From: Escherichia phage fp01
Sequence record: NC_048731.1
Direction: 5' to 3' (one strand)
DNA: 64,000 bases
Shown here in pieces: positions 4,208 to 41,155 of the stretch. The translations under genes and the position numbers were made by a program. Below the pieces are notes generated by a model that did not search any database, had not been told where the DNA came from, and saw only the letters and a program-made list of their open reading frames with translations. Position 1 is the stretch's first letter. The number at the start of each line of letters is the position of its first letter.

Positions 4208-4236
4208 ATTATAGCAATAAATAAGAGAGAAAGCAA
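4208..4236 (-). promoter_or_regulatory. T5-type early promoter (minus strand)
   Basis: plus attata 4208-4213, aagcaa 4231-4236, 17-bp spacer; flanking aatttatataaat block. Confidence 0.55.
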
Positions 4237-5976: not shown

Positions 5977-6053
5977 TGGGGTGGCTAGTGGAATTCGAAT
6001 CCACATAGGCCTGATTCACAATCAGGATCATTAACCAATTATGATATAGCCAC
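5977..6053 (-). tRNA. tRNA-His (anticodon GTG)
   Basis: acceptor GTGGCTA/TAGCCAC, discriminator C, D-stem TCAT/ATGA, anticodon stem CCTGA/TCAGG with loop TTGTGAA, CCA encoded. Confidence 0.75.
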
Positions 6054-6422
6054 AATTGAAAACTCGCAGGGTTAGCGAAACCTTCCTCAATTAGCATGTT
6101 CTAGAATACTAATCAAGTTATCTCCTATTGCACGCAGCTCAAGACGAGTACGAATTTTCAATTGTGGCGGCTCTCCGAAACTCTTCTACTCTAGCCTTAG
6201 CAGCTTACTCCCGAACGCATGTCGGGAAAGTCTTACTAAGAGCATCAAATAGCACCGTTACACTTTGAGCCATAGATATATCAAGAAGCAGAAGGACTTG
6301 AACCTTCACGAGATAGACCATTTATCTCAGCCGCTTTATGAGGTATGTTGCAGGGAGTGGATGTTCCCTATAAACCTTTTAGGCAGCCCCGTCTACCGAT
6401 TCCGGCATACTTCAAGAATTTT

Positions 6423-6596
6423 TTATAAACCAGCAGAAGCCTCATTTAAAGCATCAACAATAGCTTCACGTTGGGTCATTCCGTACCCGGTGGAATCTAG
6501 GTGTGGCAAATAAGCCATCCATCCCTTATCTGTTTCATGAAGACATGCTTTAAATTTTTTACCATCCTTCATTGTTACAGTAACTGTTTTGCTCAT
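6423..6596 (-). CDS. small HicB-like (antitoxin-fold) protein, 57 aa
   Basis: manual translation MSKTVTVTMKDGKKFKACLHETDKGWMAYLPHLDSTGYGMTQREAIVDALNEASAGL; the Y-x-P-x-L-x-G-x-G-x-T-x-x-EA-x-x-A-x-x-EA pattern resembles HicB/UPF0150 N-domains. Confidence 0.4.
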   Translation of the reverse strand: MSKTVTVTMKDGKKFKACLHETDKGWMAYLPHLDSTGYGMTQREAIVDALNEASAGL

Positions 6597-6616
6597 AAGA
6601 CTTCCTTATAGTTAAT

Positions 6617-6706
6617 TGGCAGAAGATAATGGAGTCGAACCATCACCGTATCGCTACAGCGGGCTGGTTTTCAAGACCAGTTACGTACCACTACGTCCTA
6701 TCTTCT
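6617..6706 (-). tRNA. tRNA-Ser (anticodon TGA), type II
   Basis: acceptor AGAAGAT/ATCTTCT, anticodon stem CTGGT/ACCAG with loop CTTGAAA, long variable arm, CCA encoded. Confidence 0.7.
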
Positions 6707-6712
6707 ATTGTT

Positions 6713-6803
6713 TGGCGGAAGAGGAGAGATTTGAACTCTCAAGCCGTTTTACCAGTCAGCCGCTTTCCAAGCGGTTTTCGTCGCCAATTCGATTTGCTCT
6801 TCC
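6713..6803 (-). tRNA. tRNA-Ser (anticodon GGA), type II
   Basis: acceptor GGAAGAG/CTCTTCC, T-arm GAGAG-TTCAAAT-CTCTC, anticodon loop TTGGAAA, long variable arm, CCA encoded. Confidence 0.7.
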
Positions 6804-6915
6804 AATAATAAGATGATGCCTCTATCACACCAGGCAGTTACGCCTCGCTGGGATTCGAACCCATTAAAACAGCTCAACCGAGATAGTAGGTTTAATTTAC
6901 TCTGACCATCAAATT

Positions 6916-7000
6916 TGGTGGGGCTAGGGAGACTCGAACTCCCACGCATTTAAGCTACGGAATCTAAGGCCGTATTGTCTACCAGTTCCAGCATAGCCCC
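6916..7000 (-). tRNA. tRNA-Leu (anticodon TAG), type II
   Basis: acceptor GGGGCTA/TAGCCCC, anticodon stem TACGG/CCGTA with loop CTTAGAT, T-arm GGGAG-TTCGAGT-CTCCC, CCA encoded. Confidence 0.65.
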
Positions 7001-7005
7001 GAATT

Positions 7006-7079
7006 TGGTGGAGAAAGAGGGAGTTGAACCCTCGTCTTCTGCGTGCAAAGCAGATGTTCTACCATTAAACTATATCCCC
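7006..7079 (-). tRNA. tRNA-Ala (anticodon TGC)
   Basis: anticodon stem TCTGC/GCAGA with loop TTTGCAC, T-arm GAGGG-TTCAACT-CCCTC, CCA encoded. Confidence 0.65.
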
Positions 7080-7411
7080 AAATTCTTTAGTTTACTAAGG
7101 CTATTAGCTCGGCGTAACTACAGCACCTTCGCTTCGAGCGGAAGGAACTGCGTCATCTCGCAAACCCAATACACTATTCAGTTGCCACTGAATCTAGTGG
7201 ACTAATCTAGAACTTCTCCCGAATCGTAGGGATCGTGCTTTTTGGCAGCCAGTCCTAGGTCGAGCTAATACCTTAGTGAACTAAATTGATGGATACCAGA
7301 CTAATTTTGCTACGACGTTTATCCTGAGGATCTCTTTTTCGGTAGCTCTGCTAGTGTAGACGTCATACACCTGATATCTAGGCAGCTATTTTCGCATCAA
7401 TTTATATAAAT

Positions 7412-7440
7412 ATTATAACAAGAAATTAAGCATCAAGCAA
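7412..7440 (-). promoter_or_regulatory. T5-type early promoter (minus strand) firing into the ORF-free region 7080-7405
   Basis: plus attata 7412-7417, aagcaa 7435-7440, 17-bp spacer; flanking caatttatataaatatt block. Confidence 0.55.
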
Positions 7441-7458
7441 CTGCGTTTTTCTTGAAAT

Positions 7459-7537
7459 TGGTAGATCGCCTGGGACTCGAACCCAGAACCTTCCGATTAA
7501 AAGTCGGATGCTACTAAACCTATTGAGCTAGCGATCT
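7459..7537 (-). tRNA. tRNA-Lys (anticodon TTT)
   Basis: acceptor AGATCGC/GCGATCT, anticodon stem TCCGA/TCGGA with loop CTTTTAA, T-arm CTGGG-TTCGAGT-CCCAG, CCA encoded. Confidence 0.75.
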
Positions 7538-7538
7538 A

Positions 7539-7706
7539 TTAGTAACCATTATATACTTCTTTAATAGAGTGAACTTTCAAGTAAGGGTGATTAGTATTAA
7601 ATTCTACCATTACTTCATCCCAATTTTTACCATAATGAGCAAGTAAGGATTTTGATGTATTCTTACCTAATCGTTTGTCACTTACTACTAATCGAAATAC
7701 TTTCAT
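7539..7706 (-). CDS. hypothetical small protein (55 aa)
   Basis: manual translation MKVFRLVVSDKRLGKNTSKSLLAHYGKNWDEVMVEFNTNHPYLKVHSIKEVYNGY; below ORF-track cutoff. Confidence 0.3.
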   Translation of the reverse strand: MKVFRLVVSDKRLGKNTSKSLLAHYGKNWDEVMVEFNTNHPYLKVHSIKEVYNGY

Positions 7707-7726
7707 TTCGAAATCCTCTATTAAAA

Positions 7727-7804
7727 TGGAAGCGGGTGCAGGGATCGAACCTACCTCTTTCTAGCTTATGAGACTAGCGATCTCTACCAGAGATCTAACC
7801 CGCA
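7727..7804 (-). tRNA. tRNA, anticodon CAT (Met/Ile2 family)
   Basis: D-stem GATC/GATC, anticodon stem CTAGT/GCTAG with loop CTCATAA, T-arm GTAGG-TTCGATC-CCTGC, position 1-72 unpaired, CCA encoded. Confidence 0.65.
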
Positions 7805-7810
7805 ATTGTT

Positions 7811-7886
7811 TGGTCAGTGCGGCAGGACTCGAACCTGCGACCCGAAGCATCCAAGGCTCCCACGCTACCAACTGCGCTACGCACTG
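7811..7886 (-). tRNA. tRNA-Pro (anticodon TGG)
   Basis: acceptor CAGTGCG/CGCACTG, D-arm GCGC-AGTTGGTA-GCGT, anticodon loop CTTGGAT, T-arm GCAGG-TTCGAGT-CCTGC, CCA encoded. Confidence 0.75.
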
Positions 7887-7917
7887 TTAATTTTTGTTAA
7901 CTCACTTTATAAAATAC

Positions 7918-7946
7918 ATTATACAGATAATTAAGCAGAATAGCAA
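7918..7946 (-). promoter_or_regulatory. T5-type early promoter (minus strand) upstream of tRNA-Pro/tRNA-Met
   Basis: plus attata 7918-7923, tagcaa 7941-7946, 17-bp spacer. Confidence 0.5.
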
Positions 7947-8083
7947 ATGAATTTTTAATAAATTTACTTATTGTGTAGGCCACCTGGAGGCTACCAACCC
8001 CACGGCTGACAAAGAAGTTTGCGAGACCTCTCTTAAATGCCAGAATAGACCCGCCAATCTATCGGAACCTACATAATAAGTAA

Positions 8084-8207
8084 ACTTTATAGTGTCATTC
8101 TAGACAGGACTCGAACCTGCTATCACTTGTGCGGACTTACGAGAACCATTCTTTCACTCGAGTCGAACGAGCTTCTGCCCTAGCCAAGCTGGTTTCCCCA
8201 TCAACCA
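8084..8207 (-). ncRNA. elongated tRNA-like gene (about 124 nt): perfect acceptor stem, D-arm and T-arm plus a ~49-nt insertion
   Basis: minus-strand 5' ATTCTAG (plus 8201-8207) pairs perfectly with 3' CTAGAAT (plus 8088-8094); D-arm TGGT-TGATGGGGAA-ACCA; T-arm GCAGG-TTCGAGT-CCTGT; an extra internal hairpin CTCG-TTCGACT-CGAG; no canonical anticodon arm. Confidence 0.35.
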
Positions 8208-8338
8208 CGCTAGAATGTTTGATTGTTTTCAGTGCAAGAGTCCGAGTCTTGGACACGACCGCTTCGCAAGTACATAGGCAGCTTATCATGAGTCAGCACT
8301 TCCGAATTGCTAGCTCCGTGTTCTGCACTGAAATTTTG

Positions 8339-9241: not shown

Positions 9242-9343
9242 GCTTGTTTCCTCAGTTATTAATGAAAATGGTATCTGTGGCTGAATTCGATATCAGCAAT
9301 GATAGCTGGTTGGCTACCGGTTTACTTAACTCTACACAGAATT

Positions 9344-11810: not shown

Positions 11811-11888
11811 TGGTGGCTCCCCGAGGATTCGAACCTACGTACCTTCCGGTTATGAGCCGGGTGCTCATACCATATGAGCTTGAGAACC
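11811..11888 (-). tRNA. tRNA, anticodon CAT (Met family)
   Basis: acceptor GGTTCTC/GGGAGCC, anticodon stem CCGG/CCGG with loop CTCATAA, T-loop TTCGAAT, CCA encoded; third CAT tRNA in the array. Confidence 0.6.
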
Positions 11889-16094: not shown

Positions 16095-16175
16095 TACCGA
16101 CCGTAGGATTCGAACCTACATCTTCCACCAGTTACGGCTTGATAATACCAATTATACTAGGACGGCAGTGTTACT
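16095..16175 (-). ncRNA. degenerate tRNA-like element (pseudo-tRNA)
   Basis: T-arm GTAGG-TTCGAAT-CCTAC and acceptor GCCGTCC/GGTCGGT are present, but the D-arm is aberrant and no anticodon stem can be drawn. Confidence 0.35.
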
Positions 16176-29165: not shown

Positions 29166-29357
29166 CTACAATTTTAAATAAGCCTATGATATTGCATTTA
29201 AATAAAAAATTTGCTTGCTTTTAACGTGAGATGTGTGATACTAGATAATCATTTTATATCGCGTACACGAGTGCGTGATTATACAATTTTTAATAGAGAT
29301 TGGCAAATAAAATTTTTTGACTCAGATCATGTTACAGAACTTTATAGTAAAATATTG

Positions 29358-29386
29358 TTGACATCCGCCCTCGAATGAGTTATAAT
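29358..29386 (+). promoter_or_regulatory. consensus sigma70 promoter (TTGACA-17-TATAAT) for nrdD
   Basis: TTGACA 29358-29363, TATAAT 29381-29386; GAAGGAGAG SD before ATG 29416. Confidence 0.6.
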
Positions 29387-29415
29387 AGTAGTCTTAGTTA
29401 GAGAAGGAGAGTATA

Positions 29416-31290
29416 ATGAATCGCAATGAAGAACTAAAATATAAAGAAATGCAGGCGTTAATTAGAAACTGCAAAGAGATTATCGAAGGGTCAGCAGACG
29501 AAGAGCTGCTGTTTAATAATGCCAATAAACCCTCAGAACGTTTTCCTACACAAAGGGATATGCTTGCAGGTGAGTTGAGTAAGTATCTGATTCTAGAAGA
29601 AATGCCAATTCAGATTCGAAATGCTCATATGATTGGGGATATTCATTTCCATGATGCTGATTATGCTGCATTAGGCATGACTAACTGTTGCCTGGTAGCT
29701 CTGGAAGATATGTTAAAGAATGGTATGAAGGTTGGTAATGCTGAAATTAGCACTCCAAACTCTATCACTACTGCGGCGGCTATCACTGCTCAGATTATCA
29801 CTCAAGTTAGCTCCCATCAGTATGGTGGTACTTCTGTAGATCGCCTTGATGAAGTATTAGCCCCTTATGTTCGTAAATCATATGATAAAAATCATGCGTT
29901 TGCAAAACGTTGGACTAAGGATGAAGCCAAAGCATCCGTAATGGCTACGGAGATGACTGAAAAAGAAGTCTATGACGCTTGTCAGGGTTTAGAATATGAA
30001 ATCAATACCATGTTCAACTCTAATGGTCAGAGTCCATTTATTACCTTTGGTTTTGGTCTAGGAACTTCTTGGGAAGCACGTCTAGTACAGAAAGCAATAC
30101 TGAAAGTACGCATGGATGGTTTAGGTATCAATAAACGTACAGCTATCTTCCCGAAACTGGTATTTGTACTTCGTGATGGCGTAAATATGAAACCAGGAGA
30201 TGTTAATTATGACATCAAGAAGTTAGCTATGAAATGTACTGCTGAACGTATGTATCCAGATTATATCAGCTATGACAAGGTTGTAGAAGTTACTGGAGAC
30301 TACAAAGTTTCTATGGGCTGCCGTTCATTCCTAGCTGCTACAGAAGATGGTGAAACTGCCGGCCGTAATAACTTAGGTGTTGTTTCTGTAAACTTGCCTA
30401 GAATTGCTATCGAAGCTGAGGGAAATATTGACCTATTCTTTGATTTGCTTGAGCTACGTGTGGATACAGCGTTAAAAGCATTGGAGTGGAGAGTTGATCG
30501 CTTAAAATACATTCAAGCTAAAGCTGCACCTATCCTCTATATGTCAGGAGCCTTTGGGTTACGCTTGGAGCCTGATGAGTATGTATTCGATCATTTCTAT
30601 AACCGTGCTTCTGTATCTCTAGGGTATATTGGTTGCCATGAAATGCTACAGTTTATGTTTGGCAAAGATGTAGACACAATGTCCGAGACCTGCATCAAGT
30701 TTGTTCAGCGTGTATTGCAGTACATGCGGGATAGAGTCGATCAGAAGAAGGAAGAAACTAAGTTAGGTTATAGCCTGTATGCTACACCATCAGAATCCCT
30801 ATGTGACCGTTTTTGTCGTCTAGACCGTGAATATTTCCCAGAGCATGAAGATATTCTGTCCAAAGGATACTACACTAACTCGCACCACCTTGATGTAGAA
30901 CGTAAAGTTGCTCCCAATGTGAAATTTGATTATGAATCTAACTTTACTCCGATTGCTTCTGGTGGGTGCATTTCCTATGTAGAACTACCGGATATGAAAC
31001 GATTCCCAGATGCACTGGAATGGGTTATTAATTATGCTGCTAGTAAGGTTCATTACTTCGGTATTAATACCCCAGTGGATTCTTGTGGTAAATGTGGATT
31101 CTTAGGTGAAACAATAGCATCCGAAGATGGATTTAAGTGCCCTATCTGTGGTAATCATGACCCCGAAACTCTTGAAGTAACTCGTCGAGTTTGTGGGTAT
31201 CTTGGAAATCCGGGTGCTCGTCCATTTAACCCCGGCAAACAGCACGAGGTTATGGGCAGAGTGAAACATCAGGATATTCGAGCTAAATAA
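29416..31290 (+). CDS. nrdD: anaerobic ribonucleoside-triphosphate reductase (class III)
   Basis: 624 aa; C-terminal Zn-ribbon CGKCGF...CPICG followed by glycyl-radical motif TRRVCGYLG. Confidence 0.95.
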   Translation: MNRNEELKYKEMQALIRNCKEIIEGSADEELLFNNANKPSERFPTQRDMLAGELSKYLILEEMPIQIRNAHMIGDIHFHDADYAALGMTNCCLVALEDMLKNGMKVGNAEISTPNSITTAAAITAQIITQVSSHQYGGTSVDRLDEVLAPYVRKSYDKNHAFAKRWTKDEAKASVMATEMTEKEVYDACQGLEYEINTMFNSNGQSPFITFGFGLGTSWEARLVQKAILKVRMDGLGINKRTAIFPKLVFVLRDGVNMKPGDVNYDIKKLAMKCTAERMYPDYISYDKVVEVTGDYKVSMGCRSFLAATEDGETAGRNNLGVVSVNLPRIAIEAEGNIDLFFDLLELRVDTALKALEWRVDRLKYIQAKAAPILYMSGAFGLRLEPDEYVFDHFYNRASVSLGYIGCHEMLQFMFGKDVDTMSETCIKFVQRVLQYMRDRVDQKKEETKLGYSLYATPSESLCDRFCRLDREYFPEHEDILSKGYYTNSHHLDVERKVAPNVKFDYESNFTPIASGGCISYVELPDMKRFPDALEWVINYAASKVHYFGINTPVDSCGKCGFLGETIASEDGFKCPICGNHDPETLEVTRRVCGYLGNPGARPFNPGKQHEVMGRVKHQDIRAK

Positions 31291-31295
31291 GCTAA

Positions 31296-31330
31296 TCAGC
31301 CGGGTTGCTAGTCGACCTGGCTTTTATTTT
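31296..31330 (+). terminator. terminator-like hairpin plus T-run after nrdD
   Basis: AGCCGGGTTGCTAGTCGACCTGGCT hairpin followed by TTTTATTTTATTT. Confidence 0.45.
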
Positions 31331-31332
31331 AT

Positions 31333-31361
31333 TTGCTTTCAGCCAAAAATTTATATATAAT
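31333..31361 (+). promoter_or_regulatory. T5-type early promoter (plus strand)
   Basis: TTGCTT 31333-31338, TATAAT 31356-31361, 17-bp spacer; downstream AGATTTATAAATTTGAGAGGAG block. Confidence 0.55.
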
Positions 31362-31389
31362 AGATTTATAAATTTGAGAGGAGAAAGAT

Positions 31390-31770
31390 ATGGAATTAAA
31401 ACCCTATATAGTTGAATCTACATGTGGTAGTTTCCATCTGGGTGTGGATGATATTGCTGAGGCTGTCTTTGCTGCCACAGGTGATTACTCGCATATAGAG
31501 GGTGTTGCATACCCTACCATTATTGGCGATTGGGTGGGAACAAATCTAGATGTATCGCCTTATAACCCATATTGCTTGTTTGATGAAGATAGAGATGAAG
31601 TAAAATGTAATCTTGAATTTGTGTATAATAGAGTGTTAAAAGTATACCAACGTAGCCCCAATGGGTACGAAGATATTACTTGGAGTATTAAACAGTATCT
31701 TAAAGATATATACTCTAGTTTTTCTGACGAAGACCTAGAAACAGTTGCAGTGGAGTTTAATAATGACTAA
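31390..31770 (+). CDS. hypothetical protein
   Basis: ORF track 126 aa; no radical-SAM CxxxCxxC motif, so not an NrdG-type activase. Confidence 0.5.
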   Translation: MELKPYIVESTCGSFHLGVDDIAEAVFAATGDYSHIEGVAYPTIIGDWVGTNLDVSPYNPYCLFDEDRDEVKCNLEFVYNRVLKVYQRSPNGYEDITWSIKQYLKDIYSSFSDEDLETVAVEFNND

Positions 31771-31969
31771 GAATGTGAAACATCTTAAATATCGCTTAAT
31801 TTACAATGGACGTATGGAAACAGAAGATCTGGCCCAATTAGCTATTAATTCTAATGAGGTTACAGTGCGTGCGCTGGCAATTGAAAAGTTGCGTGCCTCT
31901 TATGAAAATCGTGTTATGGAACTAGAGGAGAAACTTTATGGCATTCTCGAAGCCGATGCTACCAGATAA
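31745..31969 (+). CDS. hypothetical protein
   Basis: ORF track 74 aa. Confidence 0.4.
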   Translation: MQWSLIMTKNVKHLKYRLIYNGRMETEDLAQLAINSNEVTVRALAIEKLRASYENRVMELEEKLYGILEADATR

Positions 31970-32159
31970 GGGTTTAAACGCTGCTTTGGAAAACGCATTA
32001 ATGCAGCACTGGGAAACTGGCTATAAGGATGGTGTTGAATCCTGTGCTACTATGCTAGAAGTTATTGCTAATACCTTAATGGAGAAAGGCAATAAAGAAT
32101 TAGCTGAGCTATTAGACAGTATTGGGCAAAATTTCAGAGAACAGGTGAAAAATGCGTAG
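31938..32159 (+). CDS. hypothetical protein
   Basis: ORF track 73 aa. Confidence 0.4.
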   Translation: MAFSKPMLPDKGLNAALENALMQHWETGYKDGVESCATMLEVIANTLMEKGNKELAELLDSIGQNFREQVKNA

Positions 32160-32988
32160 ATTAATTATTATTAGCGGTGCGGGTTTGAGTGTTGAAAGTG
32201 GTGTACGAGCTTTTCGTACTGATACTGCTAGTGGTAAAGCATTGTGGGATGATTATGATCTAGAAGAAGTATGTAATATTCATGCCTTTCGTGGTAACTT
32301 CTATCATAAAACCCATATGTTTTACAACAAGCGTCGTGAAGAGCTAAAAACTGTTGAACCCAATCTTGCGCATTTGCGTATTGGTGAATGGTATAAACAA
32401 TATCCAGGTCAGGTAGTAAACTTGACTACCAACGTTGATGACCTTATTGAGCGTGCTGGCGTTCCAAATAGTGACATTCTGCACATTCACGGATATTTAA
32501 AAGAGGTTGTTGTAGCTGATAGCTACAATAGTAGCAATAAACGGATTATTGATGTAGGATACAATTCTATTGATCCAGATGATTATAAATGGGTTAAACC
32601 TAATGTAATCTTCTTTGGGGAGCATGCTCCAGCGTATGCAGAAATGTACAATGTTTTTGATGGTATTACCAGTCAAGATATGATCATTGTGGTTGGTTGC
32701 TCTAACCAAGTAATTAACTTCTACTGGGAATTATTTCCTGTTCTTAATTTGAATGCTGCCAAACTAATGGTAGTTAACTACTATGATAGTGCCCTCGCAG
32801 CGGAACCGGGCTATCAAGGTATGACTCGTAGTGAGATGTACCAACTGGAAGAACGTGGTATCCCTTACTGGAGTAAAGGTGCGGTAGATGCTTTTAGTGA
32901 CCCTGATTTTATTGCTCGTGTAGAAGCTCATTTAGAGGGTAGACCTTATGTGTCGAGAAGCAAGGGAAACAGATATGTCCATAGTTAA
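32152..32988 (+). CDS. Sir2-family (sirtuin-like) NAD-binding protein
   Basis: 278 aa; GAGLSVESGVRAFR N-terminal motif, TTNVDDL block and HIHGYL (catalytic His); no CxxC...CxxC zinc-binding cluster. Confidence 0.7.
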   Translation: MRRLIIISGAGLSVESGVRAFRTDTASGKALWDDYDLEEVCNIHAFRGNFYHKTHMFYNKRREELKTVEPNLAHLRIGEWYKQYPGQVVNLTTNVDDLIERAGVPNSDILHIHGYLKEVVVADSYNSSNKRIIDVGYNSIDPDDYKWVKPNVIFFGEHAPAYAEMYNVFDGITSQDMIIVVGCSNQVINFYWELFPVLNLNAAKLMVVNYYDSALAAEPGYQGMTRSEMYQLEERGIPYWSKGAVDAFSDPDFIARVEAHLEGRPYVSRSKGNRYVHS

Positions 32989-33157
32989 ACCTGTGTATAC
33001 ACATCCTGATGATATATTTGTATGGGCGGACGGTAGTTGGTGCTATCGCTGTGAGCTGTGGGAAATGGATTATAAATCCGATGACTATGGTGTTATATAT
33101 GTTGATACGGTTGAGTATGATACGTTCTTAGAAAGGAACAAAAATGGAAATAAGTAA
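32948..33157 (+). CDS. hypothetical protein
   Basis: ORF track 69 aa. Confidence 0.35.
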   Translation: MCREARETDMSIVKPVYTHPDDIFVWADGSWCYRCELWEMDYKSDDYGVIYVDTVEYDTFLERNKNGNK

Positions 33158-33650
33158 TACTCCAATTATTTTTCTAGACATTGATGGGGTGCTCAATTCG
33201 AGCATCTCCCACCATCATGCACCTGATAATGAAAAGATTTTCTTTGGAAGTGACTGGGTTTTCAAACCCCTTCTCAAGGCTTTTCAGGATTTTATTCGTC
33301 CTTCTCCGATAATGATTGTTGGAGTATCCTCATGGTTCTCTGTCAGGAATGAGATGGAGAACGTTCAGATTATGACCGGATTAGGTCTTATCGATCGTTT
33401 TCTTGGTACAACGGATTTTACTGGGGGTGGATTATCTAGAGGTAATTCTGTTCTTCGTTTCGTTGAAAAGCATAAGCTCAAACATTGGTGTGTGCTTGAT
33501 GATGCTGGTGCTATGATGTATCAGTATCCAACGGTTATAGTCAACGGTAGGACTGGGATAAATCTTCAAGATTTAAAAGCTGTTAGCTATATGCTAGAAT
33601 TTAGCCCAGATCTTGAAATGTGTAAATCCTTACAACAATTTAAGGTGTAA
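33144..33650 (+). CDS. HAD-superfamily phosphatase-like protein
   Basis: 168 aa; HAD motif I IFLDIDGVLN near N-terminus, later VLDDAG acidic motif. Confidence 0.6.
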   Translation: MEISNTPIIFLDIDGVLNSSISHHHAPDNEKIFFGSDWVFKPLLKAFQDFIRPSPIMIVGVSSWFSVRNEMENVQIMTGLGLIDRFLGTTDFTGGGLSRGNSVLRFVEKHKLKHWCVLDDAGAMMYQYPTVIVNGRTGINLQDLKAVSYMLEFSPDLEMCKSLQQFKV

Positions 33651-33652
33651 AT

Positions 33653-34081
33653 ATGTTCAATAATGTATTCTCTAAAGAAGCTAACCCAATTTTGGTTAAC
33701 TTTTGGCGTACCCTCCCGGCTAGCCTGTATAATGAGGCTATTAACTCTTTGAAAATATGGTGTGAGAATAACGAAATCTCCTTTGCTTTTAAAGATGATA
33801 TTGATGAGGCCCCTTGTATTGGTTTAATTGTTCAGGTAGAGGAGGGTCTTGAAGAGATTGTCGGCTGGAAAGAGTTAGATGAAATGGGCTTAGTTTTTGC
33901 ATTAAACTATAAGCTGTTTATGCCTGCTAAGCATCGCCTCGTTGTTAACTATAAAACTAGTGAATCTCCTGGTTTTCAGGTTAATGAACGTTATGGTTGG
34001 TCTTACTCACCGGAAGAAGTAAATGAGGGGATTCAGAAACTTCGACGTTTCGGGTATATGATCCCAGGTTTAACTGCTTAA
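33653..34081 (+). CDS. hypothetical protein (paralog A)
   Basis: 142 aa; shares PCIG...W.EL..MGL..ALN..LF.P...PG motifs with the next gene. Confidence 0.5.
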   Translation: MFNNVFSKEANPILVNFWRTLPASLYNEAINSLKIWCENNEISFAFKDDIDEAPCIGLIVQVEEGLEEIVGWKELDEMGLVFALNYKLFMPAKHRLVVNYKTSESPGFQVNERYGWSYSPEEVNEGIQKLRRFGYMIPGLTA

Positions 34082-34090
34082 GGAGGCAAA

Positions 34091-34483
34091 ATGGAACAAG
34101 TATATTGGCGTCAGATTGACCCTAGTTTGGTAAAGCGTGCGGAAAAGCTGCTACAACGTTGGTTGGGAGTAAGACAAGCCTCCTTCACTTTTCCGGAGCA
34201 GCAAACGGATGATCCCTGCATTGGCGTTTTCCTGTCTGGGTATGCCGGGGAATGGGAGATGGACTGGAATGAATTGTCCGCTATGGGTTTAATTGTTGCC
34301 CTAAATTTCTCTTTGTTCCATCCACGTGGTTTTGCCATATGTCGTGTGCCGGATGATGGCTGTTCGCCACATCTTTTACAGGTGGAAGACGATATTTGGG
34401 AGTACACTCCAGGTATTCTCAAAGAAGCTAAAGAACAGTTAAACAGTGTTGGGATCTATGTTCCGGGATTAAATGATGAATAA
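34091..34483 (+). CDS. hypothetical protein (paralog B)
   Basis: 130 aa; tandem paralog of 33653-34081; GGAGG SD upstream. Confidence 0.5.
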   Translation: MEQVYWRQIDPSLVKRAEKLLQRWLGVRQASFTFPEQQTDDPCIGVFLSGYAGEWEMDWNELSAMGLIVALNFSLFHPRGFAICRVPDDGCSPHLLQVEDDIWEYTPGILKEAKEQLNSVGIYVPGLNDE

Positions 34484-34667
34484 AGAATATTGGGTATGTT
34501 ATGGTAAAATTAAAAAGTGGAATAAGGGTCAACTTTCAGCTAAGCAAGTAAAATTTATGGCAAGATATTTGACTGATCCCACTTTCGATATTAAAAAGTT
34601 AAGTAGCTCAAACCGCGCTATTATACTTAAATTTGCTAGTACTATTCGTGGTCTTTTTTATGATTAA
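34473..34667 (+). CDS. hypothetical protein
   Basis: ORF track 64 aa. Confidence 0.4.
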   Translation: MMNKEYWVCYGKIKKWNKGQLSAKQVKFMARYLTDPTFDIKKLSSSNRAIILKFASTIRGLFYD

Positions 34668-34743
34668 TCCGTATAACCGAGTCATTTTGACTCGGTTTTC
34701 TCTATGCTCAAAGACACTGATAGCACCTTTGGGAAAAATTTAC

Positions 34744-34772
34744 TTGCATGATGCCCAAAATCTTGATATAAT
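34744..34772 (+). promoter_or_regulatory. T5-type early promoter (plus strand)
   Basis: TTGCAT 34744-34749, TATAAT 34767-34772 with TG extension; downstream ATTTATATTGAATTGAGAG block. Confidence 0.55.
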
Positions 34773-35073
34773 ATTTATATTGAATTGAGAGACATTAGTA
34801 AAAATTGATTTTGCTAATTTTTCTTGTTTACAATCCGCGATACGGAACAGTTAGGCTGCCCCATTAAGGGTTGTTTTAACTGTTACGTGTTAGTTTTTAA
34901 ACAAATAGTTAATAGAATACTTAGCGATCTGCGTCCCATAGGAACCCTGGTAAGGCCTCGAAGCAACCTAGTATGAGGTGGTTGTGAAGTGAGATGGGAG
35001 GAGTGAAAAACTACCGAGACGTGATTCTGTAAGTTATATTGCATCTAGTATGAGCTAGTACATGAAGCATTAG

Positions 35074-38061
35074 GTGAGCAAATCTGGCTTAGCGGCCATC
35101 CTCAAGGATTTGTGCGGTATAATGAGGCAGCAGCGCAGCGTGAAAGTGGAAGTTGCCACCCCACTTCAGTATTTGCGATTAATTGTTGAGAAATTGACAG
35201 TAACAGTTGTTCTATTCTTTCTGAATAGTCCTAAAGAAAACTTATTTCATTTCCAACACAGGAGTATTGTTGTGTTCTCAATCCTACAAGGTCATGCAGG
35301 ATTTCATCGCGATTTAGCCACTGGCATTTGGCGAGAAGTTAAAGCAGAAGACTATCTTTTTGCTAAAAGATTTTCCTCAAAGCATCCTGAAGGTAAACCA
35401 GCTTCAATGCCCTTCAAGTTTGATGTAATTGATGAAATTGATCCTCAAACCCTAGTAGAAATGCTCCCCCTTATGAGACGTTTAACGTCTGACCCTCATA
35501 TCGTTGCGGTACGAGGACGATGTCTTGCACCCAAAAATAATGTGCGACGTAAGAAGGGCAACTTTAATGTATCTAACCCAAGTCATATAATTGCAATGGA
35601 CGTGGATGGTATTGTAGATACAGGTGGTTGTAACAAGTTTGATCTTGTTGGCATGGCTCGACATATTATTAGGATGTTAAATAGTATTAGTGAGGATATG
35701 TTTCCTCTTGATGCAGGGTTTATTGCTCATGCATCGTCTTCGGCTGGGCTAAAACCAGGTATCCGAATGCACTTAATACTAGAATCTAATGTTAAAGTAA
35801 CTCAGGGTCAAATCAAATTCTTATTTACATCTATCAACGAAAGTAGTAGACAAAAGTATGGCTTTGATATTGCCGACTTAGCTTATTACTCTTCCGTACA
35901 GCTCCATTATTTTGCAGATCCGTTGTTTACCGATGGTATAGTAGATCCGTTTAAAGCGGAGGGTGCTTCACGTCTGGTATTTGTTAAGGGTTCTAAAGTA
36001 AATTTACCCAATAATCTGGTTGACTATGAAACAACTAGAGGTGAGTTTAAAGAAGAGTTCTACTCTTTACTCGACCAAATTAAGGGTAAAAAAGCTGCCT
36101 CTGATAAAGTAGAAGAAACTATCAGCGAACTAGAAGAAGCTGAGGATGGAGTGTATCTACGTATTATTCCTAAACTCTATCACAGGGCTTTGGAGGATGG
36201 TGTTGATTTTGCATGGTTAGAAAAAGAAATCCGTCCAGCCTTATCAGAATATATTGCAACTAAAGATAATAGTCGTAATATTCAAGACTACTTTAATAAT
36301 GGTCGTAAACAGGCTCTAAAAGCGTTTGTTAATAATTCTAAACGTGATATACCGGATGTTTTAAAAGGTATTCCACTTAAAAAGCTAGAAACTAACTCTT
36401 TAGAGACTGATAACTTCTTGAAATTAAATACTGTACCACCAGAAGGTTATATGACTTTTGTAAAAGCAAGTTTAGGTACAGGTAAAACTACAGCGGTTGT
36501 GCGTTGGTTAGATTCAGGAGTTATTAAAGGTAATTTCTTAGCAATTACCAATACTCGAGCACTGGTATCTTCAAATGCTAAGAAATTTAGTGCAGGACAA
36601 TATGATAAGTCTGTAGATATGCTTAATTTTAAGCGTGGTGCTATTGACCGTATGTCCACAACTATTCACTCTTTGCATAAGTTCAAGAGTTTTATTGGTC
36701 AAATCGATGCAATCTTTATCGATGAATGTGATGCTGTAATGAATGACCTATTGTTCGCCCCTGTTGTTAAACAACGTCGTGAATGTATTCAGGTTCTTCG
36801 GGATATTCTTGCAACTGCAAAAATCATTATATTATCTGATGGTGATATTAGTGCAGAAACAATTGAAGCATATGGTTCTTTGATTGAGTTTGATAAACCG
36901 GTTGCATTTTATAATCATCACCGTAAAATGCTGTCAAAAGCTCATGCTTACGAGTTCCCTGACGAATCCAGTATTTGGGTTGCACTTCAGACTTCTCTAG
37001 AGATGGGTGAGAAATCTATTCTGGTATCTGACTGTGGGCCGGATGAACTGAATGAGAAGGGCATGGCGTTGCGTCGTAATACGGGTGCATTAGTTAAGGA
37101 AATCCACTCAAACTCTACGTCTGATGTAGATATTAGACGTATTCTGGATTACACAACTAATGAGCTAATTGACCAACAAATTGATTGCTTATTATGTAGT
37201 CCATCCGTAACGAGTGGTGTTGACTTTAACTATTTTGATAACGTATTCGTTATCACTAGAACTAGTAACCAAGCGCCAAACATGCGTTTCCAAGCAATCA
37301 GGCGCGACCGTGGTGCTCAGAACATTTATTATTTTATTGATAAATCTACGAGTGGATTCTCCGCAGGTTCTGAGCAATATAACATTGATGAAGGTTGGCT
37401 GGAGTTAGCACAGCAATTATACGCACGTCGAAGAGAGCTGGAATCTAGGAACTATACTAGTACTTTACGTTATTATTTGCTTGATCAAGGTGCAACTATT
37501 GATATTTTCAGTGAAAGCTGGGGAACTATCGAAGGTGCAGGAAAAGAGTATACGGAAGAGCGAATCAAAGCTATATTGTATTCAACTCCTGATTATTGTG
37601 CTCCACGTCATGCAGATGCGTATGAAGCTAAACTACTTCTTGTTCGCTATTATCATCTTGAATCTATTAAAGATGTAACAGTTGAGCATGTTGAACAATA
37701 TATCAAGGATAAACCGAATGATCGAGCAGCATTCTTCCATAAAATGCACGAGATGTTCTGGGAAGATATTAAGAAGTGTTCAAATGTCACTATCAAACCA
37801 TTCATAGAAGCTCTGAAAGGTAAGAAGAAAGATTTCTTCCTTAAAACAGGTCAGAGTGCTAACCCAAAATATGCCAGAATGTATCTTGGTATGATGGGTA
37901 TTGGTAAGGATATGAACACGGAGAATATTGTAGACTGGTACAGAACTTATTGTAAAATCGAGTGTATGCCAATCCCGTATAAGTTTATGACTGATGAGGA
38001 GAAACATATGCATGATGAAGCAATGGCAGAGCTAGGTGCTAGAAATGACAGTGAAGAATAA
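35074..38061 (+). CDS. large P-loop NTPase (helicase/origin-binding-like replication protein)
   Basis: 995 aa; Walker A ASLGTGKTTAV and Walker B IFIDECDAV; ORF-track start is GTG and the true start is uncertain. Confidence 0.65.
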   Translation: MSKSGLAAILKDLCGIMRQQRSVKVEVATPLQYLRLIVEKLTVTVVLFFLNSPKENLFHFQHRSIVVFSILQGHAGFHRDLATGIWREVKAEDYLFAKRFSSKHPEGKPASMPFKFDVIDEIDPQTLVEMLPLMRRLTSDPHIVAVRGRCLAPKNNVRRKKGNFNVSNPSHIIAMDVDGIVDTGGCNKFDLVGMARHIIRMLNSISEDMFPLDAGFIAHASSSAGLKPGIRMHLILESNVKVTQGQIKFLFTSINESSRQKYGFDIADLAYYSSVQLHYFADPLFTDGIVDPFKAEGASRLVFVKGSKVNLPNNLVDYETTRGEFKEEFYSLLDQIKGKKAASDKVEETISELEEAEDGVYLRIIPKLYHRALEDGVDFAWLEKEIRPALSEYIATKDNSRNIQDYFNNGRKQALKAFVNNSKRDIPDVLKGIPLKKLETNSLETDNFLKLNTVPPEGYMTFVKASLGTGKTTAVVRWLDSGVIKGNFLAITNTRALVSSNAKKFSAGQYDKSVDMLNFKRGAIDRMSTTIHSLHKFKSFIGQIDAIFIDECDAVMNDLLFAPVVKQRRECIQVLRDILATAKIIILSDGDISAETIEAYGSLIEFDKPVAFYNHHRKMLSKAHAYEFPDESSIWVALQTSLEMGEKSILVSDCGPDELNEKGMALRRNTGALVKEIHSNSTSDVDIRRILDYTTNELIDQQIDCLLCSPSVTSGVDFNYFDNVFVITRTSNQAPNMRFQAIRRDRGAQNIYYFIDKSTSGFSAGSEQYNIDEGWLELAQQLYARRRELESRNYTSTLRYYLLDQGATIDIFSESWGTIEGAGKEYTEERIKAILYSTPDYCAPRHADAYEAKLLLVRYYHLESIKDVTVEHVEQYIKDKPNDRAAFFHKMHEMFWEDIKKCSNVTIKPFIEALKGKKKDFFLKTGQSANPKYARMYLGMMGIGKDMNTENIVDWYRTYCKIECMPIPYKFMTDEEKHMHDEAMAELGARNDSEE

Positions 38062-38278
38062 AAAATGGGAAACAAGGAAGTTCCCAGTAAAAGAACGTAA
38101 AGTTCCTGTTTACGACACTTCGGAAAAGCTATGTAGGGTGGTACCACATAGATTAGCTGGCATCCCTAACATATCCGAGTGGTTACTTAAACAACGGAAA
38201 ACAAACGTGTCTCTTCGCATCGGCTTTGAGTTAGATAAAGTCTATGCTGAACTTGCTTCTTTGCTCAAGGAATCGTAA
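38036..38278 (+). CDS. hypothetical protein
   Basis: ORF track 80 aa. Confidence 0.35.
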   Translation: MLEMTVKNKKWETRKFPVKERKVPVYDTSEKLCRVVPHRLAGIPNISEWLLKQRKTNVSLRIGFELDKVYAELASLLKES

Positions 38279-38286
38279 AAATTTAT

Positions 38287-38315
38287 TTGCATAGTGCAAA
38301 AAATTTCTGTATAAT
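38287..38315 (+). promoter_or_regulatory. T5-type early promoter (plus strand)
   Basis: TTGCAT 38287-38292, TATAAT 38310-38315; downstream AGATTCATAAATTTGAGAGAGGAG block. Confidence 0.55.
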
Positions 38316-38346
38316 AGATTCATAAATTTGAGAGAGGAGTTTAAAT

Positions 38347-39051
38347 ATGGCTGGTTCTCGTAGAAAGAAACATATCCATGAAATCCCTGATGAAGTCTTT
38401 AAAAAGGTTATAGAGCATCTGGGGAACGGTGGTACTAAGAAAGCAGCATGTGAAATGCTCGGCGTATCATCTAATCCAACTATGGAAAGGATGATTGAAG
38501 AATGGCAAGACCGCCAGATTCAAGTTGCCGAAATGAAGAAAAAGAAACGTGGCACACTTATTGAAGGCATCGAGCTAGCTAACGTTATTGAGCAGTATTT
38601 GTCTGGTGATTCTTTTGAAGAGATTGCCGATCGTAATTATCGCTCTGTAGCAATGGTTAAATCTGTTCTGGAACGATATGGTGCTCTACTTCGTTTGAAC
38701 GATATTGTAGATCCATTGAATCCTCCGATTATTCCTGATGATGCTGTAGCAGAAGAATTTGCAGTTGGTGAGCTTGTTTGGGTTCCTGGATACCAGTGTA
38801 TCGGTGAAATCAAAAAAGCAATGGATAATCCTGTTGGTTGCTACCGTGTATGGCTTCTATCAGAAGGCAAACAACAGAACGTCCATTATATGAATTACGA
38901 GCTGGCCTCTGTTAAACATCTGGAAAAGCTAGGGGTTGACGTAAAGTCTCTGGGATATAAATGGACTCGTGAAGAAATTATTACGTTGATTAACGAAGCT
39001 GTTAAGGCTGCCCTGAAACTTGATAAAGAAAAAGGAAAACGCCGTGAGTAA
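38347..39051 (+). CDS. putative DNA-binding protein with N-terminal HTH
   Basis: 234 aa; TKKAACEMLGVSSNPTMERMIEEW helix-turn-helix-like segment. Confidence 0.5.
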   Translation: MAGSRRKKHIHEIPDEVFKKVIEHLGNGGTKKAACEMLGVSSNPTMERMIEEWQDRQIQVAEMKKKKRGTLIEGIELANVIEQYLSGDSFEEIADRNYRSVAMVKSVLERYGALLRLNDIVDPLNPPIIPDDAVAEEFAVGELVWVPGYQCIGEIKKAMDNPVGCYRVWLLSEGKQQNVHYMNYELASVKHLEKLGVDVKSLGYKWTREEIITLINEAVKAALKLDKEKGKRRE

Positions 39052-41126: not shown

Positions 41127-41155
41127 TTGCTTTCAACTCAGTTTTGTTATATAAT
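41127..41155 (+). promoter_or_regulatory. T5-type early promoter (plus strand) for ligase A
   Basis: TTGCTT 41127-41132, TATAAT 41150-41155; downstream ATTTATATAAATTGATGAGAG block. Confidence 0.55.

Follow-up and report, generated by a model that had tools for sequence, protein, structure and literature searches.

Conserved and covarying secondary structure of RNA2H, a stable RNA annotated in the tRNA region of T5-like phages, at its locus in Escherichia phage fp01

Escherichia phage fp01, a T5-like phage (Demerecviridae, Markadamsvirinae), has a minus-strand array of 23 tRNA genes (ARAGORN) that spans 3.4 to 15.6 kb, and at positions 7080-7411, within this array, lies a promoter-proximal segment that raises three questions: which RNA it produces, how that RNA is made and what it does. 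In this study, the segment was investigated within a window of 64,000 nucleotides (nt) of the record NC_048731.1; the window is the whole stretch of DNA that was analysed, and all coordinates are window positions. Homology identifies the segment as orthologous to RNA2H, a stable RNA already present in the GenBank records of phages T5, BF23 and phage 5. The secondary structure of the RNA2H domain is conserved and covarying in T5-like phages, and its closing stem and a core of ~50 nt are almost invariant.

Among the megablast matches, the record AJ604531 ('Bacteriophage 5 tRNA gene region') annotates exactly at this place a promoter, P13b, and a misc_RNA, rna2H, which is 172 nt long and is described as 'stable RNA with unknown functions'. 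Both features are also carried by T5 (AY543070; rna2H at complement(31808..31979), P13b at 32001..32075) and by BF23 (AJ604530). Transferred to the window by homology to the GenBank features, the RNA is placed as follows:

7099..7270, minus strand: RNA2H as annotated, 172 nt, 5' UAUUAGCUCG... to ...CGAGCUAAUAGCC 3'

All positions of the AJ604531 feature were aligned (172/172) at 97.7% identity (blastn), and 168/172 bases were identical to the T5 rna2H. The gene order tRNA-Lys, P13b, RNA2H, tRNA-Ala(UGC) and tRNA-Leu(UAG), all on the same strand, is shared with the T5-group records, and the window agrees with T5 both in the position of RNA2H between P13b and tRNA-Ala/tRNA-Leu and in having the same closing stem of 22 base pairs (bp). 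The window differs from T5 and BF23 in its long 5' module (103-nt interior), which is also present in phage 5, phiLLS and SPC35, and in the lack of a tRNA-Val between tRNA-Lys and P13b, which is shared with phage 5. Over the segment 7080-7411, identity was 99.5% to Escherichia phage phiLLS and ~98% to many Salmonella and Escherichia T5-like phages.

The existence of RNA2H is already known, the RNA having been annotated without a function since the tRNA regions of T5, BF23 and phage 5 were deposited. Its spot is left empty in most automated annotations of T5-like genomes, and no mention of it by name was found in the open-access literature. A preliminary description of the locus, made from the letters alone, had proposed a candidate structured non-coding RNA (ncRNA) here; the structured RNA stands, given three curated stable-RNA records and a conserved, compensated structure, but it is not a new candidate. 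The single RNA of ~330 nt that had been imagined has to be replaced by a variable 5' hairpin module followed by a structured domain of 172-194 nt. The covariation-backed secondary structure, the exchange of arms, the RNase III-like geometry of the ends and the long/short polymorphism of the 5' module are new here.

The domain is composed of the following elements, which were identified by RNAalifold and minimum free energy (MFE) folding for the P2 arm and by the conservation among homologs for the core:

7261..7282, minus strand: 5' strand of the closing stem P1, AGUUCACUAAGGUAUUAGCUCG, pairing with 7111-7089
7207..7258, minus strand: P2 arm, CUAGGACU (7258-7251) / AGUUCUAG (7214-7207)
7162..7214, minus strand: near-invariant core of ~50 nt, AGUUCUAGAUUAGUCCACUAGAUUCAGYGGCAACUGAAUAGUGUAUYGGGUUU
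7112..7161, minus strand: P4, a long irregular hairpin with base GCG...CGC and tip CCUUCCGC-UCGAA-GCGAAGG
7089..7111, minus strand: 3' strand of P1, CGAGCUAAUAGCCUUAGUAAACU, pairing with 7282-7261

P1 comprises 22 bp with one mismatch and one bulge, and closes the RNA2H domain from 7282 to 7089. Its inner part, AGCUCG...CGAGCU, is the long-range complementary pair that the preliminary description had picked out, and the GC-rich hairpin mentioned there is likewise real and forms the tip of P4. P2 encloses a small hairpin with an A-rich loop, P2a (7249-7237), and a variable hairpin, P2b (7232-7217), while the core contains the hairpin UUCAG-YGGCAA-CUGAA at 7192-7177. Two mutually exclusive pairings of the core are possible. 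Model A consists of CACUA/UAGUG together with the P2 helix CUAGGACU/AGUUCUAG; model B consists of UCUAG/CUAGA (7211-7207 / 7197-7193) and of a loop, AGUCC (7203-7199), that pairs with GGACU (7255-7251).

These pairings were assessed in alignments of 31 distinct full transcripts and then of 41 distinct RNA2H domains (GenBank phages, IMG/VR and metagenomes), using controls in which the pairing partners were slid by 1-3 columns, and 500 shuffles. In the 41 sequences, standard pairs occupied 95.2% of the cells under model A and 94.6% under model B, compared with 27-44% in the slid controls. The covariation score was 0.153-0.167, compared with at most 0.056 in the controls, and 0/500 shuffles reached the observed values. 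Between 13 and 14 pairs were changed on both sides, and RNAalifold found 12 compensatory pairs. The preliminary description had allowed for a region with no conserved secondary structure; pairing was instead found to be conserved and covarying across the 41 homologs.

The individual helices contribute to this signal in different ways. P1 was paired in 99.7% of the cells among the 41 homologs, with one compensatory change from GC to AU (in bombadil) and three G-U changes, and P2 was also paired in 99.7%, EH3 having one compensatory change. Tequintaviruses have a P2b hairpin of 16 nt, in place of which Epseptimaviruses have hairpins of 38-44 nt of three kinds; within these replacement hairpins, CG->UA and CG->GC changes were found in 10 sequences. 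P4 occurs in three sequence versions, each of which folds as a hairpin of ~50 nt; changes on both sides affect eight pairs of its main helix and one more in the GCG/CGC base. At the pair of alignment columns 149/197, 27 sequences have CG, 12 have UA and 2 have AU.

The two core pairings are each backed by some variation. Model A is thermodynamically favoured in 39/41 sequences, with pairing probabilities of ~0.96 for CUAGGACU/AGUUCUAG and ~0.85 for CACUA/UAGUG, and has one compensatory change, the C->U of EH3 that restores the CUAGGACU/AGUUCUAG helix. Under model B, a double swap (A-U,G-C -> G-C,A-U) in SE7 and EH3 keeps UCUAG/CUAGA and breaks the other helix, and the loop AGUCC is perfectly complementary to GGACU in 41/41 sequences. 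Both pairings may be used, as the variants of two sequences suggest.

The strand of the RNA was decided by the covariance model score and by the G-U pairs. The 194-nt domain folded far more stably than shuffled sequences (z = -5.4), and the whole segment of 332 nt had z = -4.2. The opposite strand folds equally well (z = -5.7 on the plus strand vs -5.4 on the minus strand); folding energy is useless for the choice of strand because an inverted repeat gives z of about -5.5 on both strands. The covariance model built for the domain (R1) scored 242.6 bits on the minus strand vs 34.3 bits on the plus strand.

Upstream of the domain lies the variable part of the transcript, which was delimited by homolog alignment and folding:

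7283..7403, minus strand: 5' hairpin module

Its closing stem, AAAUUGAUG (7403-7395) / CAUCAAUUU (7291-7283), is retained in all homologs. The interior, at 7394-7292, has a length of 103 nt in the window; it was found in 83 phage records, all at least 95% identical and all at this locus only. In the short form, which is that of T5 and most relatives, a 9-10-bp hairpin with a GAAA loop replaces the long interior, and this hairpin has compensatory variants in one homolog (L080) and a flipped loop in two others (L034 and L039). A separate structured RNA in the 103-nt interior was considered and dropped: the 5' 123 nt alone folded weakly (z = -1.6), the MFE and centroid structures disagreed, and there was little variation to test.

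Around the two parts of the transcript lie the elements listed below, which were identified from the sequence, the GenBank annotation and ARAGORN:

7412..7453, minus strand: promoter P13b, of the T5 early type
7405, minus strand: putative transcription start (A of AUAAAUUGAUG), located 7 nt downstream of the -10 element
7080..7088, minus strand: 9-nt spacer AAAGAAUUU before tRNA-Ala
7079-7006, minus strand: tRNA-Ala(UGC), followed by tRNA-Leu(UAG)

P13b has a -35 element TTGCTT (7440-7435), a spacer of 17 nt and a -10 element TATAAT (7417-7412), together with an extended -10 TGn (TGT) at 7420-7418 and an A5 tract at 7450-7446, all on the minus strand. The preliminary description had placed a T5-type promoter at 7412-7440 on this strand, and it was found at exactly these positions, GenBank annotating it as P13b. 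The site is absent from the output of a generic sigma-70 scan because TTGCTT matches TTGACA at 3/6 positions only, and the generic scan was replaced by a search with a T5-consensus pattern. TTGCTW-N17-TATAAT occurred at 18 sites in the window, compared with 0.09 expected, 7412-7440 (minus) being one of them. A consensus of TTGCTw/TATAATA has been published for a T5-like phage (PMC3326045). The 18 sites comprise 14 on the minus and 4 on the plus strand (for example 1883-1911, 4208-4236, 7918-7946 and 41127-41155), and ATTTATATAAATTGAT recurs downstream of several of them. In the window, the 75-nt P13b annotated in AJ604531 maps to 7460-7386 at 100% identity (blastn), and begins 2 nt inside tRNA-Lys(UUU), at 7459-7460. 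With a start at 7405, this annotated span would extend from -55 to +20. The start sequence ATAAATT is one that we take to resemble the start of T5 PN25. No terminator was predicted in 6500-8200.

The element was found only in T5-like phages, namely, Tequintavirus, Epseptimavirus and close relatives. The core domain was present in 303 T5-like records (megablast), and the whole region, including promoter-only matches, in 530. A 'distant' blastn search of 50,697 phage records returned T5-like phages and promoter-only matches, the latter in Klebsiella and other phages; on inspection, these were ordinary promoters before protein-coding genes and were rejected as homologs. Pattern scans of IMG/VR, the JGI metagenomes and 185,579 bacterial species genomes yielded T5-like contigs only, plus chance 16-18-mers that were rejected by the covariance model. 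R1 gave no match in the tRNA loci of the Demerecviridae of Aeromonas (Shenzhenvirus), Providencia (Priunavirus) and Vibrio (Cetovirus). As regards mimicry of, or antisense pairing with, the host, no similarity was found in 5,426 complete E. coli genomes at E<=1 (blastn), and within the window only chance matches of at most 13 nt were found. An analogous layout is seen in Providencia phage vB_PreS_PR1 (KY363465; L100:741-1072), which belongs to a distant genus of Demerecviridae: an annotated promoter is followed by an ORF-free stretch of 332 nt (ORF, open reading frame) and then by a tRNA. The fold of this stretch (z = -3.65) has a long stem that closes it and a hairpin resembling a T-arm, but the stretch is not matched by the RNA2H covariance model.

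Within the T5-like phages, the element is a mosaic. The 5' module has two forms (long and short), P2b has four and P4 has three; nine combinations of these were found in the 31 sequences, including all four combinations of the 5' form with P4 versions 1 and 2, and thus the modules reassort by recombination within conserved blocks. In one natural phage of 108 kb, L092 (IMGVR_UViG_2706796640_000001; 2234-2333), the whole RNA2H core is deleted and the promoter, the 5' hairpin and P1 remain. This deletion is bounded by two GCTCGA direct repeats, one in P1 and the other in the P4 loop.

With moderate confidence, we favour the joint reading that the segment is P13b with the ortholog of RNA2H, an RNA which is excised from a tRNA precursor and acts in trans through its invariant core in an accessory role. 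Host sigma-70 RNA polymerase would start at P13b and read the 5' module, the domain closed by 22 bp, and then tRNA-Ala and tRNA-Leu; RNA2H would be made as part of the tRNA-Ala/Leu precursor, because the stretch from the promoter to the tRNAs lacks a predicted terminator. The annotated ends, taken from the GenBank annotation only, are 5' U7270 and 3' C7099. Within P1 they lie opposite one another, with 12 bp of the stem below them and 10 bp above, and leave a 2-nt 3' overhang. P1 itself has the length of an RNase III substrate, being a helix of at least ~20 bp that brackets the product. From this end geometry, and because stems also enclose the sibling RNAs III and IV, we infer that a nuclease specific for double strands, most probably RNase III of the host, would cut the 172-nt species from the precursor. 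The remaining 10-bp terminal helix would shield the 172-nt RNA from exonucleases. For the excised RNA2H, we consider action in trans the most likely, by way of a host or phage factor that would be bound by the invariant core; recognition by a partner is suggested by the free variation of the arms, which contrasts with the sequence conservation of the core and of the two P1 strands. Any role would be accessory and not essential, because the locus lies inside two T5 deletions, 29191-32442 and 30661-38625, that are non-essential (PMC11464382) and viable in the laboratory. The loss of the core in L092 is in keeping with an accessory role, yet the element is present in several hundred T5-like records.

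Several points weigh against this reading. Both the 'stable' status and the ends of the RNA derive solely from GenBank annotation, the argument for RNase III cleavage is purely one of geometry, and the fold of the core is ambiguous between models A and B. Recent recombination sweeps, and not purifying selection for a function in trans, could account for the high sequence conservation of stem and core, the region being mosaic and rich in homing endonucleases, with modules that clearly reassort. Dispensability in the laboratory and the natural deletion fit a by-product equally well. The searches described above found no homologs outside Markadamsvirinae, so that deep conservation adds no independent support.

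A by-product is what the most serious alternative proposes. The segment would be a cis-acting leader or processing cassette for the P13b tRNA-Ala/Leu precursor, and the 172-nt species a long-lived by-product without a function of its own. We regard this explanation as possible, although less probable than action in trans. It accords with co-transcription from immediately upstream of the tRNAs without a terminator, with peripheral arms and a 5' module that are freely swapped or resized, with the natural phage that dropped the whole core and kept P1 and the promoter, and with the dispensability of the region in T5 deletion mutants. A spacer or processing stem would not, however, need an invariant core of ~50 nt, nor would it explain why both strands of P1 stay nearly invariant in phages in which the arms next to them can no longer be aligned, or why the element is retained in hundreds of genomes.

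A degenerate or expanded tRNA-like RNA, comparable to RNA1, RNA2 and RNA3 of T5, whose acceptor-like end (helix + G + CC) still engages tRNA enzymes, is improbable. The element lies in the tRNA array beside annotated tRNA-like RNAs, its annotated 3' end reads ...helix-GCC, and the MFE fold of the window sequence joins four helices with linkers of 2, 1, 4 and 0 nt in cloverleaf fashion. These linker lengths hinge on a G-U-rich helix with an A-C mismatch in 33/41 homologs, and the cloverleaf-like junction was dropped for this reason. No tRNA was found in 7080-7411 by ARAGORN or by Rfam, either at the gathering score or at E<=10, and the silence of ARAGORN and of the tRNA-clan models (CL00001) bears out the preliminary description, which had seen no cloverleaf tRNA here. 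The signature of a T-loop and D-loop is absent, and the helix tips where these loops would sit are the most variable parts; moreover, the curators labelled RNA1-3 'tRNA-like' but not RNA2H. The Rfam scan that the preliminary description had suggested left the segment free of family matches: none of the 4227 models of Rfam 15, which include Y RNA, 6S, ribozymes, GOLLD/ROOL and riboswitches, came near its gathering threshold, and the sole entry touching the segment was a noise match over the promoter (21.6 bits, E=1.6).

It is still more doubtful that the conserved feature is a DNA-level element, that is, an inverted repeat or conserved block for recombination, homing or replication, with the folding of the RNA being incidental. 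The equal folding of both strands (z = -5.7 and -5.4), the alternation of conserved blocks with swapped modules, as at recombination joints, and the HNH homing endonuclease genes in this region of relatives would all suit such an element. Compensatory changes nevertheless keep the pairing, and among the pairs kept are G-U pairs, whose counterparts on the opposite strand would be A-C; the covariance model separates the transcribed strand from the other (242.6 vs 34.3 bits); a dedicated promoter faces the element; and GenBank annotates a stable RNA.

That one or more small proteins are encoded is hardly credible: short ORFs exist at 7281-7370 (minus, 29 aa) and 7104-7169 (minus, 21 aa), and some automated annotations call a 'hypothetical protein' here, but a Shine-Dalgarno sequence is absent, most phages lack the segment with the 29-aa ORF, which is broken by a premature TGA (TGG->TGA) in 4/7 long-form variants and by a 1-nt deletion (frameshift) in phage 5, and indels of 1, 22 and 25 nt separate the homologs across the RNA2H domain, where substitutions follow base pairing. 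The third ORF of at least 20 aa (amino acids), at 6975-7205 (plus, 76 aa), runs antisense through tRNA-Ala and tRNA-Leu. The preliminary description had judged this ORF, and any other in the segment, not to be credible, and we agree, as the reading frames are broken by a stop, a frameshift and non-triplet indels in homologs.

If RNA2H is excised and acts in trans, as we favour, a more specific form of this function can be proposed tentatively. The core could bind or mimic a host component, such as an RNA-processing factor or a defence sensor, and could possibly work as a switch between two conformations, namely, the pairings of model A and those of model B with its loop as a pseudoknot; RNA2H would then found a novel class of accessory phage ncRNAs, a strategy to which RNAs III and IV would also belong. 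We consider this a speculative possibility that is rather unlikely as a whole. Host defences are known to be countered by phage tRNA regions: T5 tRNA-Lys acts against PARIS, and T5 tRNA-Tyr against a retron. RNA2H is a reasonable candidate for an accessory or anti-defence RNA because it is conserved and covarying, has its own promoter and lies in a defence-countering tRNA array.

RNA2H is one of a set of stable non-tRNA RNAs carried by T5-like phages, which are curated in GenBank, lie outside Rfam and are mostly omitted by automated annotation. Six siblings were located in the window by matches to features of AJ604531, with identities of 97-99%:

6055-6160, minus strand: RNA III
6165-6271, minus strand: RNA I
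6272-6416, minus strand: RNA1
7972-8074, minus strand: RNA IV
8093-8217, minus strand: RNA2
9269-9341, minus strand: RNA3

None of the six was matched by the Rfam models in the scan of the window. RNAs III and IV are enclosed by terminal stems of 18-23 bp, which are formed in RNA III by 6049-6066 / 6151-6168 (18 nt, 94% complementarity) and in RNA IV by 7960-7979 / 8068-8087 (20 nt, 90% complementarity). A 10-nt box, AGUUYACUWA/UWAGUAAAYU, is found at the base of the RNA IV stem and in P1 of RNA2H but nowhere else in the tRNA region; it may be a shared processing signal or the trace of a duplication. The 'H' of RNA2H had been guessed to mean 'homolog', but a homology of RNA2H with T5 RNA2 was rejected, as there is no evident similarity and RNA2 has a tRNA T-arm.

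Some neighbouring genes were missed by ARAGORN. A tRNA-Ser(GGA) that is annotated in T5, BF23 and phage 5 lies at 6713-6803 (minus, 98.9% identity); it scores 24 bits with the Rfam tRNA-Sec model, and according to the curators it does not work as a suppressor. Two further Rfam tRNA matches above the gathering score were found at 11814-11888 (minus, 40.3 bits) and 16095-16166 (minus, 35.5 bits), the former probably being, by its position, the tRNA-Ile2(CAU) of the phage 5 annotation. Between tRNA-Leu and tRNA-Ser(GGA), a gene-free stretch of ~110 nt (6804-6915, minus) occupies the place where T5 has the HNH homing endonuclease hegC (F-TflI).

The coordinates, alignment and covariance model presented here, being backed by structure, could seed an Rfam family, and a demonstrated function in trans, for example against host defence, would raise the significance of RNA2H.

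RNA I, III, IV and RNA1-3 are, like RNA2H, co-transcribed with tRNAs and annotated without a function, but they are smaller (73-145 nt) and have no sequence similarity to it beyond the 10-nt box; tRNA arms can be recognised in RNA1-3 but not in RNA2H. In the tRNA cluster of phage T4, 'species 1' and 'species 2' (rnaC and rnaD) are stable non-tRNA RNAs that derive from tRNA precursors and are dispensable in the laboratory. Their likeness to RNA2H is conceptual only, the phages being unrelated, and no homology is claimed. Stalks cut by RNase III flank 16S and 23S rRNA in their precursors and occur as sites in T7 early RNA. As in these stalks, the mature RNA2H sits between the strands of a helix of 22 bp, about two turns, with a 2-nt 3' stagger, which would fit cleavage of this kind; unlike them, its stem is far more conserved in sequence than recognition by RNase III alone requires. 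Y RNA/YrlA, 6S RNA and GOLLD/ROOL likewise have several helices and paired 5' and 3' ends, and some of them lie beside phage tRNA genes, but they differ from RNA2H in size and motifs, in line with its lack of an Rfam match at E<=10.

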